64,000 bases of DNA, taken from contig CAYSHM010000014.1 in NCBI GenBank assembly GCA_964430885.1, positions 1 to 64,000 on the forward strand, written 5' to 3'. Positions 46,731 to 57,286 of this stretch are shown one piece after another. The notes below the pieces were generated by a model. That model did not search any database. It was not told where the DNA came from and worked only from the letters and a program-made list of their open reading frames with translations. Every line of letters starts with the position of its first letter. The first letter of the stretch is position 1. Both the position numbers and the translations under genes were made by a program. The stretch is from an uncultured archaeon. GTDB lineage: Archaea > Thermoplasmatota > Penumbrarchaeia > JASLWR01.

Positions 46731-48140
46731 TCAATATGAAATATTTCCCTGAAAAGCCTCTTCTATAAGGCGCTCGTATTCTTCTGAAGTGATCTCCCCT
46801 TTCTCGAATTTATCCGCCAACATTTCAAAATAATGCTTCAATTTTTCATCTTCATCCTCAAATTGATAATTATCGTAGGATTCCTCTGAGATGTCCTTAG
46901 ATTCTTCGACATTGTCGTCATCATCTAGGGGTACTGCTACAACCTCTTTATCAAACCCTTCGGTTCCCCCGTAATCCAATATTTCTGCTTTGGTTTCAGC
47001 CATAGACTCCCACTCATCATCTCCAGTATACCTTAGTTCCTCAATGTCTTCTTCGGTGATCTCATGGCCTTCATAGATGTCAACTTCTTCGATCTCCTCT
47101 TCCTGATCTGCATGAAGATAACTAAGCTGATCATGGGGTGAAACCTCAGAGAAATCATCCTCTTCCAGGTTAGTCAAATCCCGTCTTCTATCGACCTGAG
47201 GAGTTCTAGGGAATTTATCCCTTTTATGTCTAAGATAACAATTTGCGCACATAGCTGGTTCTGAACGTCTTCTCTCACCCCTGAAATCGATCTCGCAAGT
47301 GGCACAGAATAGATTTTCACATTCGTTGCAGCGAATACTCCTATTATCTTTTGATATTGGGTTTCTGCAGTAAGGACATAAATGCGACTCCCTGGCAGGT
47401 GTGAAATCCAACTCGTCCTCACCATCCGCCTGTGCAAACATGCTCTGTATGTATTTCCGCCTTTCCTGGTACCTCTTATATTCCTCAATAAACTCTTTCT
47501 CGGTAGGAGTTCTTCTGATTGTCGTCGGTCTCAACCCCAGAGGTCCCATTTTCCTCTCTACTATGAAATCTTCCCGATCCTGGGCATATTCAGGAAAATC
47601 TCCAAACTGTTCTTCAGAATATTCTGTTTGCTGTTTGACCTGCATTTGCTTAGTTTCCTGCTGCGCCTGCTGCTGAGGTTGTGGTTGTTGGGGTTGTTCC
47701 TGAATCTGATTTTGAATCTGCTGGTTTAAGAATGGCGCCTGCTGCTGAGGCTTGGGTTGTTCATTTTGCTGTGGCTGATAACCGCCGTAATTATATACTG
47801 AATGGCTAGAATGATCCACCGCGGGAGAATGATCATATTTATCATCCGCCTCCTCTCGGCATGCCTCTTTGTTTCGAAGGGCCGATTCATTCATAGGGTT
47901 TATCTTCAGGGCCTTATTGAAACATTTCAATGCAGACTCATAATCCTTCATCTTGCTGTAAGCAAGGCCCATATTATTCCAAGCCCCATCATGAGAGGGT
48001 CGGTATTCCAGAGCCTTCATATAATAAGCAATTGCTGCCGGATAGTTCTTCCGCCTGAACTCATAATTGCCCTTTTCTTTGAACTTCTCTGCCTGGGTTG
48101 TTGAGTCCATATCCCTAGCATAACGACTATCTGCTCTCAT
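46731..48140 (-). CDS. TPR repeats, Q-rich linker, 8-Cys zinc finger, acidic region and SHOCT-like C-terminus
   Basis: KEKGN..F....Y..AI..Y.KAL, AWNNMG.AY....DYESALKCFNKALKINP; CPYC-x12-CNEC-x4-CATC-x15-CANC; FEKGEITSEEYE. Confidence 0.8.
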   Translation of the reverse strand: MRADSRYARDMDSTTQAEKFKEKGNYEFRRKNYPAAIAYYMKALEYRPSHDGAWNNMGLAYSKMKDYESALKCFNKALKINPMNESALRNKEACREEADDKYDHSPAVDHSSHSVYNYGGYQPQQNEQPKPQQQAPFLNQQIQNQIQEQPQQPQPQQQAQQETKQMQVKQQTEYSEEQFGDFPEYAQDREDFIVERKMGPLGLRPTTIRRTPTEKEFIEEYKRYQERRKYIQSMFAQADGEDELDFTPARESHLCPYCRNPISKDNRSIRCNECENLFCATCEIDFRGERRRSEPAMCANCYLRHKRDKFPRTPQVDRRRDLTNLEEDDFSEVSPHDQLSYLHADQEEEIEEVDIYEGHEITEEDIEELRYTGDDEWESMAETKAEILDYGGTEGFDKEVVAVPLDDDDNVEESKDISEESYDNYQFEDEDEKLKHYFEMLADKFEKGEITSEEYERLIEEAFQGNISY

Positions 48141-51189: not shown

Positions 51190-51585
51190 TTGCATGGTGA
51201 TAAAATAGATAAAAAATCAATTTCATTCGACCATTACCTCCATCTAGTTCCCAAAAGAAATTGCAGATGGTATATCTCAAAGAAAACTGGTCGTTGTGTA
51301 ATTAGAATCAAAAGATTCAAAAAAGAACCTTCATTGTATCAGAGAATCCTGTTAAAATTATTTCATAGGAACGAATATATCAAGATATTCTTAGATGATT
51401 ACGGGTCGGATGTATTCCGTTTCATCAATTCAAAGAATGACATAAAGACAATAGCCAATAAAATCAAATTTAAAAATAAGAGAGATGGGAAAAATATCAA
51501 TTTCAGGCTTATCTCATTTATACTCAATCTAGAAAGCAATGGATTGATCGTGCTGCTAAAACCAAAAACTGACAAAAATCTTTGA
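51190..51585 (+). CDS. PqqD-like / RiPP recognition element-fold protein
   Basis: L.P.R...W, V..I.RF, I.LDDYGSDVF..I......I..IA, RL..F...L...GLI. Confidence 0.6.
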   Translation: MHGDKIDKKSISFDHYLHLVPKRNCRWYISKKTGRCVIRIKRFKKEPSLYQRILLKLFHRNEYIKIFLDDYGSDVFRFINSKNDIKTIANKIKFKNKRDGKNINFRLISFILNLESNGLIVLLKPKTDKNL

Positions 51586-51614
51586 TTATTCCTATTATTA
51601 ATAGGTGCTGGCAT

Positions 51615-52436
51615 ATGCGAAGAAAAATCATTACATTGATGACTGATTTCGGAGATGACCATTACGTGGCCCAGATGAAGGCGGTAATCCTTTCCACCTG
51701 TCCAGAAGCTCTTATTCAGGATATCACCCACAGAATTAAAGCGCAGAATATTCGTCAAGCGGCATATATTCTACAATCTACATATAAATTGTTCAGGTCC
51801 GAATTGGTTCCCATACACTTGTGTGTTGTCGACCCCTCCGTTGGATCGAAGAGAAAGGGATTATGCATAAAAACTGGACATGGCTTTTTTATAGGTCCTG
51901 ATAACGGAGTGCTGTATCCTTCAGTTTCAGAAGATGAAAACTTTGAGGCAAGAGAAATAGATATCAGTACTCACCGAATTGATGGATATGGTGCCACGTT
52001 TGACGGAAGAGATCTTTTCGCCCCTGTAGCAGTATTTTTATTTCAAGGAAATCCATTTGAAGAAATAGGCCCAGTTGTTGATGAAATAAATTGTTTGGAT
52101 ATTGACAAATTCGAATTATTGGAAGGAAAAAAGGATATCATTATTGAATGTAAACCCTTGGATATCGATAATTTCGGTAATATCATTACCAATCTTGACA
52201 ATAATGATTTTCAGAAGATATTGGTTAAATATGGAATAAATAAAATTTATTTGATCAATGGTCCAAATGAAATCCCGCTTCAATTAAAAAAGATATACTT
52301 TGATGTACCTGTAGGTAACCTGCTGCTATGCCAGTCCTCATCAGGAAGGATTGAGATTTCTTTAAGAAATGGAAATGCATCAAAAAGATTGGATATTTCA
52401 CTTGGTGACAATATTATCTTCAAATTAACAGTATAA
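51615..52436 (+). CDS. SAM hydrolase / chlorinase-fluorinase family (DUF62)
   Basis: ITLMTDFG..YVAQMKAVI, DITH, VVDPSVGS.R, GPDNGVL, TF.GRDLFAPVA, ID.FGNIITN; AGGTG RBS before ATG 51615. Confidence 0.88.
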   Translation: MRRKIITLMTDFGDDHYVAQMKAVILSTCPEALIQDITHRIKAQNIRQAAYILQSTYKLFRSELVPIHLCVVDPSVGSKRKGLCIKTGHGFFIGPDNGVLYPSVSEDENFEAREIDISTHRIDGYGATFDGRDLFAPVAVFLFQGNPFEEIGPVVDEINCLDIDKFELLEGKKDIIIECKPLDIDNFGNIITNLDNNDFQKILVKYGINKIYLINGPNEIPLQLKKIYFDVPVGNLLLCQSSSGRIEISLRNGNASKRLDISLGDNIIFKLTV

Positions 52437-52462
52437 CAATGAAGCTGCTGGAGATATTTCAG

Positions 52463-54400
52463 TTAACTGCCCAGTTCAATTACTTCTTTGAGTTCTGTAA
52501 AAATAAGATTCTTCTTTACTTCAGTTACTCTAGCTCTTACCTTATCACCCTTTTCAGCTCCAGGTACAAATATTACATATCCTCCTTCCTTAGCAATACC
52601 ATCCCCCATCTTACCCATACTGATGATGGAGATAATTATTTCATCATCAGTTTTTGGATCGGAAATGATCTTCCTCTTACCCTCCATTTTCTTGCTGTGA
52701 ATCTCAATTACTTCCAGTACCTTTGTGAAAACAAGATTGTCTTTAATCTCTTCAACCCGTACCTTGGCAACATCCCCCATGCCCAGATCAGGAACGAAAA
52801 TCACGAAATCGCCGATCCTTGCTACCCCATCATTCTTCTTACCCACACCCACCACAGTGATTTCCAATTCCTTTCCTTCTTTAACATCATCGCTATCCAA
52901 ACCTCTTTCAGTTCCCTCTTCCAATGCTTCTGGGCAAGCAGCCCGCCTGGAGCAGTTTAAACATTTTCCCAACCTATAATGATTTCTATGTACTTGCTCC
53001 CCTGCAAGATGCCGCAAGATCTCATCAACTTTTCTTTCCAGCATCACTTCCAATTTTGCATCGTAATTTATTTTATATCGGTTTTCTTTTTTCTCACCAT
53101 ACTGTATATAACCGTACGGCGGGCGGACCCCGTAGTTATCCTCTACCAATTTTAGATAGGTCGCCAATTGCAGAACATGGGAATAATAAGGACCCTCCGG
53201 TACTTTTCCTGTTTTAACCTCCATGGGTATGTAGTATCCATCCTTCTCAATAATTAGGTCAGGCTTTCCGGATATGTTCAATCTTTTACCATATAGCGTG
53301 CTTTCCTTTTTGATGCCTAAAGAATCGATGTAATCTATCTTACCTTCATTTACGATGCCTTTATCGCTCCTTTCTTTCTTAGAATACCGAATATTCTTAA
53401 TCAGATAGAAAAGAATTAAAAATGCACCAATTAACCACACCATGGCCACAATCAATAATAAATGTCCAAGAATAGATATCTGGTCATCTATCAGGTTATC
53501 AATAGCATATTCCATTATGAATCCCCATGTGGACAAGAAAAGTGACATCACTACCAGCCAAAGGCTTCCCTTCCTGTATTCCTCCCTTCTTCTTATTAAA
53601 AGCCTTAATAATTCCGATAATGAAAGGTCTTCCAACTCTCTGTGAAAGGCCTTCATATAGATATTGTAATACTGCTTGCTAATGAAATGGACTGAGTTAA
53701 TGGCTGAATAAAAGAAGAAAAGTGCGGCTGCAGCCCATATCAAACTGGACCAGATTAGAAGTTTTATTAAAATTGTTAGATTATAATAATTGGTCAATAC
53801 CGCAAATATCCCCAAACCTGAAGCAATGATCGCCGAAGTAATTGTTTTATATTCCGCGTTCTTGAAAATGATGGCAGGTCTGGTTCTGGCACCTTGCCGG
53901 GTAAGAATGAAATAGAAGAACACCGATAAAACTAGGAAAAATACAGCCCCGAAAATAAAAAGGTGCCTTTCAACCTCCCCGGGCAATCGATCCAATGCTC
54001 CAGTGGATATGCCCAGTATTATAACAACCATGATAAACCATTTTGCTATCTCCCAAACCTCATGTGGATTCCTTTTCCACCAGGCAGCCATATCTCTTCC
54101 TGGCGCCATCTGAAGGTGTTTTTTTGTATGGCCTTCAAGATAGGCCTTTTTTATCTTCTTGATCTGTCTATCTTTGTATACTACATTTATAAAAAAACTA
54201 AAAGCCAATAGTGCCCACACTATTGAAAAAAGGTTCAGATAAAAAATGATTATTGGAAAATAGCTCTCAGCTCTTGAAAAGTATAACAGGACGCCGAACA
54301 CACTGAGCATTATAACAACAATGGAAAACATAATCAACAGGAACTCATATCTTTTTGATTGCTGGTCCATTAAAAATATCTTTCTTGCTGATTTGGCCAA
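52463..54400 (-). CDS. Fusion of ~8 TM helices, Cas4-like PD-(D/E)XK nuclease and two TRAM domains; start may be ATG 54370
   Basis: ISGKPDLII, PMEVKT, QLATY, HRNH...KCLNCSRRAAC; two copies of G...DG.A.....VIFVP....GD....RV.E.K.NL.F. Confidence 0.82.
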   Translation of the reverse strand: MAKSARKIFLMDQQSKRYEFLLIMFSIVVIMLSVFGVLLYFSRAESYFPIIIFYLNLFSIVWALLAFSFFINVVYKDRQIKKIKKAYLEGHTKKHLQMAPGRDMAAWWKRNPHEVWEIAKWFIMVVIILGISTGALDRLPGEVERHLFIFGAVFFLVLSVFFYFILTRQGARTRPAIIFKNAEYKTITSAIIASGLGIFAVLTNYYNLTILIKLLIWSSLIWAAAALFFFYSAINSVHFISKQYYNIYMKAFHRELEDLSLSELLRLLIRRREEYRKGSLWLVVMSLFLSTWGFIMEYAIDNLIDDQISILGHLLLIVAMVWLIGAFLILFYLIKNIRYSKKERSDKGIVNEGKIDYIDSLGIKKESTLYGKRLNISGKPDLIIEKDGYYIPMEVKTGKVPEGPYYSHVLQLATYLKLVEDNYGVRPPYGYIQYGEKKENRYKINYDAKLEVMLERKVDEILRHLAGEQVHRNHYRLGKCLNCSRRAACPEALEEGTERGLDSDDVKEGKELEITVVGVGKKNDGVARIGDFVIFVPDLGMGDVAKVRVEEIKDNLVFTKVLEVIEIHSKKMEGKRKIISDPKTDDEIIISIISMGKMGDGIAKEGGYVIFVPGAEKGDKVRARVTEVKKNLIFTELKEVIELGS

Positions 54401-54414
54401 TTTCTTATGTGCTT

Positions 54415-54744
54415 TTATGCCTTCCTTTGCTTGGACCGTCTCCGCGTCCTCACCATGTAATTGAAGCCACCAGCTAAAGGGACAAAAACCAAAACGCTCA
54501 AGGTCGCTTGCAGAAATTCTCTGCTTGGATGACCTATTGGAATGGGACGATTTATTGTTAGGGGTGCTTCTTGACCTGCCGTTCTTTTTATTAGCCCCCT
54601 TCGTCCGTACACCTGGTCTCTTATCGATGTTAAAATCCCCCGAGAATCATCCTCTGGTATTGCTTGTGTCTTTCCGAAATTCAATAAAACTAATCTATAA
54701 TTACCAATATATTTAATATCTTTTAAAAAATAATATCCTACCAT
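54415..54744 (-). other. Possible small membrane protein, or C-terminal remnant of an anchored protein
   Basis: ORF ends in hydrophobic LQATLSVLVFVPLAGGFNYMV plus basic tail RTRRRSKQRKA; AT-rich N-terminal part is unconvincing. Confidence 0.3.
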
Positions 54745-54955
54745 TATTAAAGGCTACTTAAAAAATGAAATGAATTTGGACCTCCCCCTTAATAATAAAA
54801 AGGCCTCAGGGCAGATTGTTCCATATGTGCCTCAAATATCCTCGCTAACTTTAATAATTAATTAAAAAAACTAACGCTGTTCAATATTAATTTGAAAGAA
54901 TAATAAGTATCTGCAAAAGACTCCAAATAAAAACCATTTGTCGATTCATTTAGCT

Positions 54956-55546
54956 TTACTTGCCCTTTTTATCATGGGCTCTTAGAGACGGTCTTAATTT
55001 CTCCGCTCCAATTCCTTTATGCCTTAATCCTCTACCTTTCTTACCTGCAGATGTAAGTCCTCGAAGAGCTCTGTTCTTATGTTTCCCAGTCGAAATCCAA
55101 TTCAGATCCTTATCGGCTTTTACGGAGGGGTGGTGAGGATCTACGAGAATAATTTCAAAATATTTGTGCCTTCCATCAGCACCGACAAAATAGGAATTGA
55201 GAACCTCCATGTTTGGAAACTTCTTACTAGTTCTTTCCTCGGCCATTCTTTTAAGGCTCTTGGCCATGGTGATTTTCTTTATACCCTTCCTCTTTGGCTT
55301 TCGGCCGGCCCTTATTCGATGTTTCTTCAGGCTACCTCTTCTGATCCTGGTACGTGCTATAACAACACCTTGTTTTGCCTTATAACCCAAAGCTCTTGCA
55401 CGATCCAACCTAGTAGGATGATCTACCTTCTGTATACTGTTCTCCCTTCTCCATCTGACCATCCTTTCCTTTTGATTGGCCTTGAAATCTTCGTTTTTCG
55501 GGTCGTTCCACTGTTTTCCTATATATTTATACATACTCTTGGACAT
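54956..55546 (-). CDS. rpl15e: 50S ribosomal protein L15e (eL15)
   Basis: SMYKYI, PTRLDRARALGYKAKQG, AEER...KFPNMEVLNSY, RGLTSAGKKGRGL. Confidence 0.97.
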   Translation of the reverse strand: MSKSMYKYIGKQWNDPKNEDFKANQKERMVRWRRENSIQKVDHPTRLDRARALGYKAKQGVVIARTRIRRGSLKKHRIRAGRKPKRKGIKKITMAKSLKRMAEERTSKKFPNMEVLNSYFVGADGRHKYFEIILVDPHHPSVKADKDLNWISTGKHKNRALRGLTSAGKKGRGLRHKGIGAEKLRPSLRAHDKKGK

Positions 55547-55954: not shown

Positions 55955-57286
55955 ATGATTCTGGAGAGGATCGATTCGAATATCAATATATGGGTCAGAC
56001 GGTTGATTCCGATGATAGGTGAAAGAGAAAAACGCAATATCTATAAAGGAATGGTTTCCCACTTTATGAGCAATGATGAATACTTCAGAGATGTAAAGAT
56101 CAAAAAGGCCATTTCAGAAATGCTAATCCGTCTTCGGGATCTGCTCAATATCGATTATAATGAGCATTGTGAGATTTCCAAGGAAGTGATTATGGAGAAA
56201 CAAAATACTGAATATATGCCTCCAACAGTCGATATGAAGAATATAAAGAAACCAACCAATAAATATCAATTTGAAGAAAAGACCAGAAATAGAAAATTCG
56301 AAGATGAAATAGGTGCCGACCTTCCAACGGAACCTCCAATTTCCAAAGGAAAGGACTTTGGGAAAAAGGTATTGTTAAATAATGTGTCAATATTGGGGGT
56401 TGGCAATGCGGGTTTGAATATTCTGAGTGAATTATTTGATAGATATGATAATGAATCAGACGATCTCAATCTTATTGGTTTGGATACCTGTTTAGACGAT
56501 ATTCGTCAATGCATTATTCCAAATAAAAAGTATATTGGAGCAGGAGTTACTGGAAAGGAAGGAGCCGAAAGAAATAGAATGCTGGGAAAAAAGGCTGGGA
56601 AAAAATATCTTGAAAAGCTGGAACCAGTGATTAAAAAAACTGATGCTGTGATTGTGACATTTGGATTAGGTGGGGGAACAGGTACAGGAGCGGGTGTTGA
56701 ATTGATCAAAGGCATCAAGAGATTTAATAAAATGGTCATAGCTATTGTAACCTTGCCATTTAAGGAAGAGGGAGTTATTAAAAAAGAAAACTCCATCGCC
56801 GGATTAAATAAAATGAATGACTATGCCGATAAGGTAATCATCCTGCCAAATGACTATCTTACTTCACTGGACCCTGAATTACCTTTGATAAAGGGATTCC
56901 AGATAATGGACAAGATCATGGCGCATGCGATTTTCAGAACTCATTCTTTATTACTCAACCACTCAGAAATGAGCACACCATTCTTCAACGGAAAGGACAT
57001 TTTAAGTGTCACTTTCGGAAGAGAAGTGGATGTGCTTCGCTGTTGGAATTCCACAAAAGAAGACTTTTTCGATTTTTTCAACAAAGAGAAAATTAAAGAA
57101 GTATTGGTGTTCACCTCCACCACTACTAATATTAGTGAAGGAGAAAAGAGGGATTACAAGAACGAAGTTCATAACACATTCGATTCTGCAGATTCCATCA
57201 CCTTTGTCGAGGAAATCCATCCTGATTTAGATACACCTATAGAAATGACTGTTCTATTCGGCCCGTATAATGCCAATCTAAGATAA
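55955..57286 (+). CDS. Divergent FtsZ/tubulin-family protein with ~140-aa N-terminal extension and degenerate T7 loop
   Basis: ILGVGNAG, GLGGGTGTGAG (tubulin signature), IVTLPFKEEG, ILPND.L; no NxDxxD. Confidence 0.82.
   Translation: MILERIDSNINIWVRRLIPMIGEREKRNIYKGMVSHFMSNDEYFRDVKIKKAISEMLIRLRDLLNIDYNEHCEISKEVIMEKQNTEYMPPTVDMKNIKKPTNKYQFEEKTRNRKFEDEIGADLPTEPPISKGKDFGKKVLLNNVSILGVGNAGLNILSELFDRYDNESDDLNLIGLDTCLDDIRQCIIPNKKYIGAGVTGKEGAERNRMLGKKAGKKYLEKLEPVIKKTDAVIVTFGLGGGTGTGAGVELIKGIKRFNKMVIAIVTLPFKEEGVIKKENSIAGLNKMNDYADKVIILPNDYLTSLDPELPLIKGFQIMDKIMAHAIFRTHSLLLNHSEMSTPFFNGKDILSVTFGREVDVLRCWNSTKEDFFDFFNKEKIKEVLVFTSTTTNISEGEKRDYKNEVHNTFDSADSITFVEEIHPDLDTPIEMTVLFGPYNANLR

Follow-up and report, generated by a model that had tools for sequence, protein, structure and literature searches.

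A predicted membrane-embedded Cas4-family nuclease, split by transmembrane hairpins and followed by two TRAM domains, in an uncultured marine archaeon of the Thermoplasmatota

To our knowledge, all Cas4-family nucleases described so far are soluble and act in CRISPR adaptation or in the processing of DNA ends, and the role of the many archaeal "solo" Cas4 genes is an open question. An iron–sulfur (Fe-S) "iron staple" is typical of the DNA-end processors AddB, Dna2, Cas4, and Exo5. The Cas4 proteins of CRISPR systems (PF01930/TIGR00372) are represented by the structures of the type I-C enzyme (8D3L), Cas4-Cas1 (7MI4/7MI5), SSO0001 (4IC1), and Pcal_0546 (4R5Q), and archaeal Solo-Cas4 proteins, which are encoded outside CRISPR-cas loci and have a conserved four-cysteine site, have been described in a survey (Hudaiberdiev et al, 2017; PMC5704561) and, for M. 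mazei, in PMC12501428, of which excerpts are used here. In the present study, we analyzed a 64,000-nucleotide stretch of DNA (hereafter, the window; GenBank assembly GCA_964430885.1, contig CAYSHM010000014.1, positions 1 to 64,000) from an uncultured marine archaeon of the Thermoplasmatota, in which a reverse-strand gene encodes a protein, designated Cas4-TRAM, with a Cas4 domain interrupted by eight predicted transmembrane (TM) helices and followed by two TRAM domains. The protein shares with CRISPR Cas4 the D/ExK/QxxxY core, the single Cys plus CxxCx5C, and the fold (Z of 19–20 for the predicted structure), but differs from it in the ~320-residue interruption with the eight TM helices, in an extra invariant HRNH motif before the Cys triad, in the TRAM tails, and in having no cas1, cas2, or CRISPR array with its gene. 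With the Solo-Cas4 proteins, it has in common the location outside CRISPR-cas loci and the four-cysteine site, whereas those proteins are soluble and this one is predicted to be membrane-inserted.

The gene is listed as an open reading frame (ORF) at 52463..54400 of 645 amino acids with a TTG start, and an earlier note, made from the sequence of the window, described it as an N-terminal TM block fused to a Cas4 domain with only three Fe-S cysteines. The ORF itself, its eight TM helices, its nuclease motifs, and its two TRAM domains were all found to be real by Pfam, NCBIfam, structure modeling, and sequence alignment, but the start had been placed too far downstream. Above the TTG, the frame remains open for another 82 codons, up to position 54646, and this part holds a conserved N-terminal piece of the Cas4 domain in the same frame, indicating that the called ORF is an N-terminally truncated reading of a frame of 727 codons. 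Residue numbers in this text are those of the 727-codon frame, unless they are marked as 721 numbering, which is used by the structure model and an alignment of 52 family sequences. A codon check assigned Cys55, which lies 28 codons above the TTG, to 54484..54482 and His80 of motif I to 54409..54407. The whole frame encodes exactly four cysteines (55, 562, 565, and 571), representing one N-terminal Cys and the C-terminal CxxCx5C of Cas4, and this set of four is complete only if the frame is read above the called start. Thus, the apparent lack of the fourth cysteine is an artefact of the called start, and the TM block is an insertion inside a complete four-cysteine Cas4 domain.

Conservation of this N-terminal piece extends to all relatives. 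The Cas4 signature S-A-S-D-L-E-R-x-G-F-C-P stands before the TM block in three of nine homologues obtained by a protein search (P0002, P0004, and P0005), and an alignment with eight relatives gave S45, S47, D48, E50, C55, P56, W59, W60, G76, and H80 as invariant residues. In the 52-sequence alignment, S39, A40, S41, D42, C49, P50, and W53 (721 numbering) are at least 90% conserved. The profile of these 52 members was matched to the solved type I-C Cas4 (8D3L) at both ends, its first 52 positions, including the Cys, to residues 6–53 and its last 100 positions to residues 103–205. Furthermore, a comparison of the 58 upstream codons with those of a 55%-identical relative gave proportions of nonsynonymous (pN) and synonymous (pS) differences of 0.23 and 0.95, respectively, which suggests that these codons are translated and are under purifying selection. 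As a separate observation in the N-terminal leader, one sequencing run from another sample of the same study (X4) has G>T at 54523, by which Gln42 is changed to Lys, the residue of most aligned relatives at that position.

The C-terminal half of the domain contains all of the RecB-type motifs, i.e., D463 (motif II), E476/K478 (motif III, ExK), and Q493/Y497 (QxxxY), as verified at the codon level. In eight of eight relatives, G460, P462, D463, E476, K478, Q493, Y497, H553-R-N-H556, C562, C565, and C571 are invariant, as are H547, R548, H550 (721 numbering), and the three cysteines in the 52-sequence alignment. Pfam reported TRAM (1.6e-15, two stretches), PDDEXK_1 (6.5e-10), and Cas_Cas4 (1.5e-09), with no other domain over the cut-off. 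The match to PF01930 (38.6 bits against a cut-off of 22.7) starts at position 49 of the 160 profile positions, and this match and that to TIGR00372 are limited to the last two thirds of the profiles, at the C-terminal side, because the domain is split. As read from the alignments, no catalytic or cluster residue of Cas4 is missing from the protein, for which catalytic activity and Fe-S binding are predicted.

The structure predicted with AlphaFold2 (AF2) on the 52-sequence alignment had a mean predicted local distance difference test (pLDDT) score of 78.7 and a predicted template modeling (pTM) score of 0.61; for the Cys helix of the N-terminal piece, pLDDT was 96 and 93 in the model blocks 41–50 and 51–60, respectively. 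When the model range 31–583 was compared with solved structures by VIA-align, 201 of the 218 residues of the type I-C Cas4 (8d3l_I) were aligned with a Z of 19.1, and 7mi4_A was aligned over 188 residues with a Z of 19.9 and a root-mean-square deviation (rmsd) of 2.7, the Foldseek value for the predicted model being 9e-06. The Z values for AdnAB, Exo5, MGME1, Dna2, and SSO0001 were 12–15. Because the superposition with Cas4 extends over the whole chain, the two halves reassemble in the model, and the predicted protein has one Cas4 fold that is split by the TM hairpins and rejoined from its two halves.

The insertion lies between the motif-I helix and the nuclease core, and in the AF2 model, residues 93–408 (721 numbering) contain its eight long hydrophobic helices, which pair into four hairpins. 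In the model, the motif-I helix (65–117) runs into TM1 unbroken, and TM8 (381–423) is helical to a few residues before the first core strand at E430. Lys and Arg are distributed unevenly across the membrane, with 39 on the N-terminal side, the even loops, and the C-terminal side versus 2 on the four short odd loops, so that the nuclease and the TRAM domains would face the cytoplasm by the positive-inside rule. Such a cytoplasmic, membrane-proximal location, as predicted, fits an Fe-S protein. Trp, Gly, and Ala are conserved at certain positions of the TM helices, and in three hairpins out of four, the second helix (TM2, TM6, and TM8) has a W...A..F-type motif, from which an internal duplication had been suggested. 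This suggestion gained moderate support from in-register profile–profile comparisons within the family of the window, in which the probabilities, inflated as they are by TM composition, were 75% for hairpins 2 and 3, 40% for hairpins 2 and 4, and 29% for hairpins 3 and 4, but hairpin 1 gave only 7% with hairpin 3, 3% with hairpin 2, and 0.5% with hairpin 4. Better support comes from relatives that differ by whole hairpins.

The C-terminal tail was matched in two stretches by PF01938 (57.1 bits against a cut-off of 21) and by NF053605 (PyTRAM, the RNA-chaperone TRAM; 87.5 bits against a curated cut-off of 85). In the AF2 model, two runs of five strands form two small barrels at the C-terminus, the second of which was superposed on the TRAM domain of RlmCD with a Z of 12.7 and an rmsd of 1.0 over 66 residues, and both match the stand-alone TRAM structures 1yvc and 1yez (Foldseek and VIA-align). 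The two domains are, judged by these matches, of the stand-alone RNA-chaperone type, with putative RNA binding. They share the NF053605-level score and the 1yvc/1yez fold with the archaeal TRAM chaperones TRAM0076/MMP0076 and Mpsy_3066 (excerpts of PMC6705878 and PMC5572242), but those are free proteins of ~60–70 amino acids, whereas here two copies are joined to a nuclease. According to the excerpted part of PMC5572242, stand-alone archaeal TRAMs bound RNA but not single- or double-stranded DNA, and helped RNases to degrade structured RNA.

All nine proteins of the first protein search have PF01938. When whole genomes were searched, only one (G002) had a match to the TRAM portion of the query within the same open frame; in two others (G001 and G003), the match ends before the TRAM, and a single TRAM is visible in the translated frames. 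A first metagenome scan for TRAM-bearing relatives returned none, and a second returned one locus that is the same as L002 over the upstream stretch compared. Among 23 family members scanned with Pfam, 20 had no extra domain that scored above its cut-off, and the remaining three, all of the family of the window, had one TRAM each as the sole accessory domain. As far as these searches reach, the TRAM tail appears confined to the family of the window, in which the relatives have one copy and the window has two, and the mutual identity of the two window copies (Table 1) suggests a local duplication.

Table 1. Positions of the features of the Cas4-TRAM gene and of genes linked to it or to its relatives (positions in the window, except for the TPD-family example).
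Feature	Position	Strand	Remarks
Whole open frame	52463..54646	(-)	727 codons plus TAA stop at 52463-52465; gene of the membrane-embedded Cas4-TRAM protein
Out-of-frame ATG (54648-54650) and five-G run (54637-54641)	54637..54650	(-)	One G less would bring the ATG into frame
Candidate non-canonical start, in-frame ATC (codon 7)	54626..54628	(-)	Inferred; aligned with the ATY ATY of the relatives
N-terminal half, Cas4 domain	54374..54517	(-)	Residues 44-91; first Fe-S Cys and motif-I Gly76/His80 helix
Inserted membrane block	53405..54352	(-)	Residues 99-414; 8 TM helices in 4 hairpins
C-terminal half, Cas4 domain	52916..53341	(-)	Residues 436-577; GxPD, ExK, QxxxY, family-specific HRNH, CxxCx5C
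TRAM domain 1	52718..52885	(-)	Pfam, NCBIfam, AF2 model
TRAM domain 2	52475..52642	(-)	Pfam, NCBIfam, AF2 model; 44% identical to TRAM domain 1
Ribosomal protein L15e gene	54956..55546	(-)	Directly upstream of the Cas4-TRAM gene, same strand
TPD-family nuclease gene, example	L043:4840-5625	(+)	One of 22 loci

The earlier note had named an assembly artefact as what would overturn the fusion. The fusion is genuine rather than such an artefact: independent Logan contigs from four runs cover it without indels, those of X1 and X2, which are possibly the source samples, spanning the whole of 52300-54900 and those of X3 and X4 parts of it, and orthologous fusions are present in three related genomes and eight further protein clusters.

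With respect to the start of translation, no in-frame ATG, GTG, or TTG is present between 54646 and 54400, and a canonical in-frame start ahead of the N-terminal piece is absent in four family genomes, i.e., those of the window, L002 (identical to L069 over the upstream stretch compared), L003, and L004. The region of the N-terminal piece is open and in frame in all four despite length changes in the linker. Common to the four genomes is the DNA motif GAAGGnGAT with ATY ATY after it, translated as E-G-D-I-I; in the window, it takes the form of GGGGGAT, six bases, and then ATC at 54628..54626. This ATC is the only near-cognate codon, from the upstream stop to the conserved piece, that stands at the place of the relatives' ATY ATY, and it is most likely the start; initiation at AUC or AUU would be the simplest reading for the four genomes. 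Elsewhere in the wider family, canonical starts are the rule. Of 60 loci fetched, 58 have the C-terminal motif and 53 of these the N-terminal motif, and an in-frame canonical start occurs a few codons above the latter in 51 of the 53, the two exceptions (L009 and L010) both belonging to the family of the window. Gene callers, including that of NCBI, set the start downstream of the Cys helix, and shortened proteins are hence recorded in this family.

A frameshift, programmed or erroneous, from a nearby ATG was considered as another explanation. An out-of-frame ATG lies beside a G-run in three of the four genomes; the window would need one G fewer, and L002 and L003 would need one G more. L004 has no ATG in any frame nearby, and the frameshift was rejected as a general explanation. 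The five-G run of the window is without indel in the contigs of X1, X2, and X4. As for a possible Shine–Dalgarno function of GAAGGnGAT, GGTGA and AGGTG are 5–7-fold enriched upstream of first ATGs in the genome of the window, and the Shine–Dalgarno-like hexamer GGGGAT is not enriched upstream of its genes (0.5% versus a background of 0.6%).

The family was matched in 41 of 41 related genomes and, in a sample of the phylum Thermoplasmatota, in 112 of 151 genomes at E ≤ 1e-15 (79 of the 111 of good quality); one taxonomic family of the sample had no match in 16 genomes, and several others had none. Thus, the TM-split Cas4 is a widespread but not universal gene of the Thermoplasmatota. In a library of 1.84 billion proteins, the family profile matched 272 representatives at E ≤ 1e-30 and 1225 at E ≤ 1e-10, the latter number being expected to include ordinary Cas4. 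The record titles of the relatives name Thermoplasmatota, Thermoplasmata, Methanomassiliicoccales, Marine Group III, and metagenome-assembled genomes of Thermoplasmatales, and the ESM Atlas returned only Thermoplasmatota "Cas4 family" clusters. In public records, the proteins are named "CRISPR-associated protein Cas4," "Dna2/Cas4 domain-containing protein," or "PD-(D/E)XK nuclease family protein."

Across the family, the proteins have 0, 1+1 (in two genes), 2, 4, or 8 TM helices. Most members are of ~325–330 amino acids with four TM helices and no further domain, whereas the window protein has eight TM helices, two TRAM domains, and no canonical start. Forms with two TM helices have ~275 amino acids (L017, L018, and L061), and there are other forms with eight, such as P0033, in which the four hairpins are plainly alike. 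At one locus (L072; G104:C4), the protein is divided between two adjacent genes, the first encoding the N-terminal piece with one TM helix and the second one TM helix with the core, and at another (L074; G054:C2), it is an uninterrupted soluble protein of ~205 amino acids with no TM helix, but with (E/H)RNH and CxxCx5C. The window's gene has the features that define the family: a single frame encodes an N-terminal Cys/His piece, TM hairpins, and a core that carries HRNH and CxxCx5C. The TM-split backbone is not rare, being widespread in the phylum under the label of Cas4, and only the TRAM tail is lineage-specific.

Its surroundings show no link to CRISPR, as had been noted. In the 91.6%-complete genome, Cas1 had no match and the Cas4-TRAM gene was the only match of the Cas4 family, and no array-like repeat is found in the window apart from one pair of direct copies; the gene is at most a member of the "solo" Cas4 group. 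That pair, at 47663-47761, consists of two 27-nucleotide copies, 72 nucleotides apart and 89% alike, and is probably part of a coding region rather than a CRISPR array. The pairing with an upstream L15e gene was found for the window, L002/L009, L004, L014, L015, and L016, which are long-insert forms with less than 55% mutual identity. Other neighbors are genes for an IF-2B-family protein, Trm1 and an NTPase, MetRS, GyrB, pyroglutamyl peptidase, and glmS. No defence, competence, or conjugation genes were found among the neighborhoods examined. A role in defence was considered and set aside: the PADLOC matches were only generic (Cas4 and the DruK nuclease domain), and the housekeeping character of the neighborhoods, with no defence gene, speaks against it. 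Thus, the gene is a local version, with eight TM helices and TRAM domains, of a CRISPR-independent Thermoplasmatota family in housekeeping surroundings.

Three clusters of short forms (~325–334 amino acids; Methanomassiliicoccales titles) have a nuclease gene of the TPD family (PF14811, CDIN1/C15orf41-like) as the next gene upstream in the same orientation (22 of 57 loci) and a convergent glmS downstream (29 of 57 loci). In 10 loci, a gene with the MJ1316 domain, which recognizes RNA cyclic-phosphate ends, lies two genes above the TPD gene. This linkage was rejected for the window, since the TPD gene of its genome is on another contig (L070) and the pairing is limited to the three short-form clusters. 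Two further genes near the locus were recorded. Divergent from L15e, 55955-57286 (+) encodes a tubulin/FtsZ-family protein of 443 amino acids, with the GTPase domain from residue 144 and a long N-terminal extension without a Pfam match. On the other side, 51190-51585 (+) is a basic 131-amino-acid ORF, also without a Pfam match, the end of which overlaps the start of the gene for SAM hydroxide adenosyltransferase (51582-52436).

Taking these features together, we tentatively propose, with a probability of about 0.42, that Cas4-TRAM is a nuclease tethered to the membrane on its cytoplasmic side and acting on single-stranded nucleic acid, RNA being slightly ahead of DNA as the substrate. According to this proposal, the protein would be an integral membrane protein of ~720 amino acids with a PD-(D/E)XK "iron-staple" domain of the Cas4/Dna2/AddB type, split by the four TM hairpins. 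The N-terminal piece, the core, and both TRAM domains would be at the cytoplasmic side, the two halves rejoining at the inner face of the membrane into a Cas4 fold held by the two helices that run into TM1 and out of TM8. It would cut single-stranded nucleic-acid ends close to the membrane in a metal-dependent manner, and the tandem TRAM domains may bind RNA, unfold it, and pass it on to the active site. The process served could be membrane-tethered RNA decay or processing, with a logic like that of RNase Y or Pet127 but a different ancestry. It is the TRAM domains that slightly favor RNA.

Several points weigh against this proposal. All biochemically studied enzymes of the same fold among the structure matches, i.e., Cas4, AddB/AdnAB, Dna2, Exo5, MGME1, lambda exonuclease, and RecE, are DNA nucleases, and M. 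mazei Solo-Cas4 cuts both double- and single-stranded DNA (excerpts of PMC12501428). Being present in one family only, the TRAM tail is a poor guide to what the backbone family acts on, and the link to genes of translation and RNA is weak because such genes are common neighbors of anything. With TIGR00372 (cas4), the 645-residue reading scored 64.0 bits against a cut-off of 65, from profile position 41. Because no canonical start precedes the N-terminal piece, translation of the full domain is inferred, and no RNA-seq run is among those listed as holding the window DNA.

The same architecture and topology with a DNA substrate is accordingly a serious alternative, which we regard as only slightly less probable than the proposal above. 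The protein would then be a membrane-tethered exonuclease for single-stranded DNA or DNA ends, trimming or destroying DNA ends at the membrane, whether on DNA that enters by uptake, by conjugation-like transfer, or with a virus, or on chromosomal ends or flaps attached there, and the TRAM domains would be generic single-strand clamps or would bind the RNA parts of hybrids. The nature of the close structural relatives and the activity of the M. mazei enzyme favor this alternative, as do the iron staple and the lack of TRAM in most family members. MGME1, Exo5, Dna2, and AddB-AdnAB, which have the same fold class, thread single-stranded ends into the active site, but they are soluble enzymes of DNA repair or replication, none of them membrane-inserted. 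The binding of RNA but not DNA by the assayed TRAM proteins speaks against a DNA substrate, and so do the generic PADLOC matches and the housekeeping neighbors with no gene for defence, competence, or conjugation. Furthermore, 39 of the 151 phylum genomes have no match, which argues against a universal factor of replication or repair.

It is improbable that the hairpin block is itself functional, as an oligomeric pore or a sensor of membrane state that gates the nuclease, in the manner of ComEC or of a sensor–effector. The conserved Trp, Gly, and Ala of the TM helices would agree with such a role, and large rings or oligomers occur in the Cas4 family, the SSO0001 entry 4ic1 having 10 chains and M. 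mazei Solo-Cas4 running at ~318 kDa (excerpts of PMC12501428). However, the variation from zero to eight or more TM helices among the orthologues is more in keeping with an anchor than with a defined channel, and the soluble form at L074 has no TM helix. Finally, that the protein is read only from a downstream TTG or ATG, without Cys55 and His80, and is thus a degenerate, catalytically impaired three-cysteine form with an RNA-binding role through TRAM, or else a decaying gene, could be argued from the missing start in the four genomes, the choice of the gene callers, and the unenriched GGGGAT, but is very improbable given the strong purifying selection on the 58 upstream codons, the frame kept open in four genomes, the invariant Cys55 and His80, and the canonical start just above the motif in 51 of the 53 other loci.

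As for the membrane-tethered RNA decay or processing that we favor, bacterial RNase Y and RNase E are membrane-associated RNA nucleases. The proposed membrane-held logic is alike, but there is no sequence relationship, and any likeness is functional only; neither the KH and HD domains of RNase Y nor the S1 and catalytic domains of RNase E were found in the window protein by the Pfam scan. Pet127, a membrane-bound mitochondrial PD-(D/E)XK protein (excerpts of PMC3424549), belongs to the same superfamily and has the membrane-held logic, but has neither the Fe-S staple nor a polytopic insertion. In a bolder version, Cas4-TRAM would be the first RNA-degrading nuclease integrated into an archaeal membrane, derived from a Cas4 fold that gained hairpins and TRAM domains and became a functional counterpart of RNase Y or membrane-bound RNase E, and translation from the conserved AUC/AUU start could throttle or regulate its level. 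As a whole, this version seems unlikely.

The architecture had not been recognized as a described one, and our full-text searches of the literature found no paper describing a TM-inserted or TRAM-fused Cas4. These searches included PMC5704561, PMC3424549, PMC13621843, PMC10354927, bioRxiv 2024.11.20.624502, and the supplements of two surveys, except for one supplementary file of PMC3424549, and a term search for "transmembrane" and "TRAM" in the main text and six supplementary files of PMC5704561 gave no occurrence. What is new is the TRAM-tailed version with eight TM helices and its missing canonical start.

This study indicates that one large branch of the solo Cas4 proteins is membrane-built by means of TM hairpins inside the catalytic domain, which is an unusual way of tethering an enzyme. 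The TM-split architecture is invisible in annotation, where the proteins are named only "Cas4," and in the present case, even the part with the fourth cysteine had been cut off. Being the sole accessory domain found in the family, TRAM offers the first lead on the substrate that can be put to the test. The four genomes lacking a canonical start are, in addition, a small and clean set in which archaeal initiation at non-AUG codons can be tested. We know of no membrane-tethered RNA nuclease in archaea so far, and if the substrate is RNA, Cas4-TRAM would be one; if it is DNA, the finding would bear on the fate of DNA ends at the archaeal membrane.

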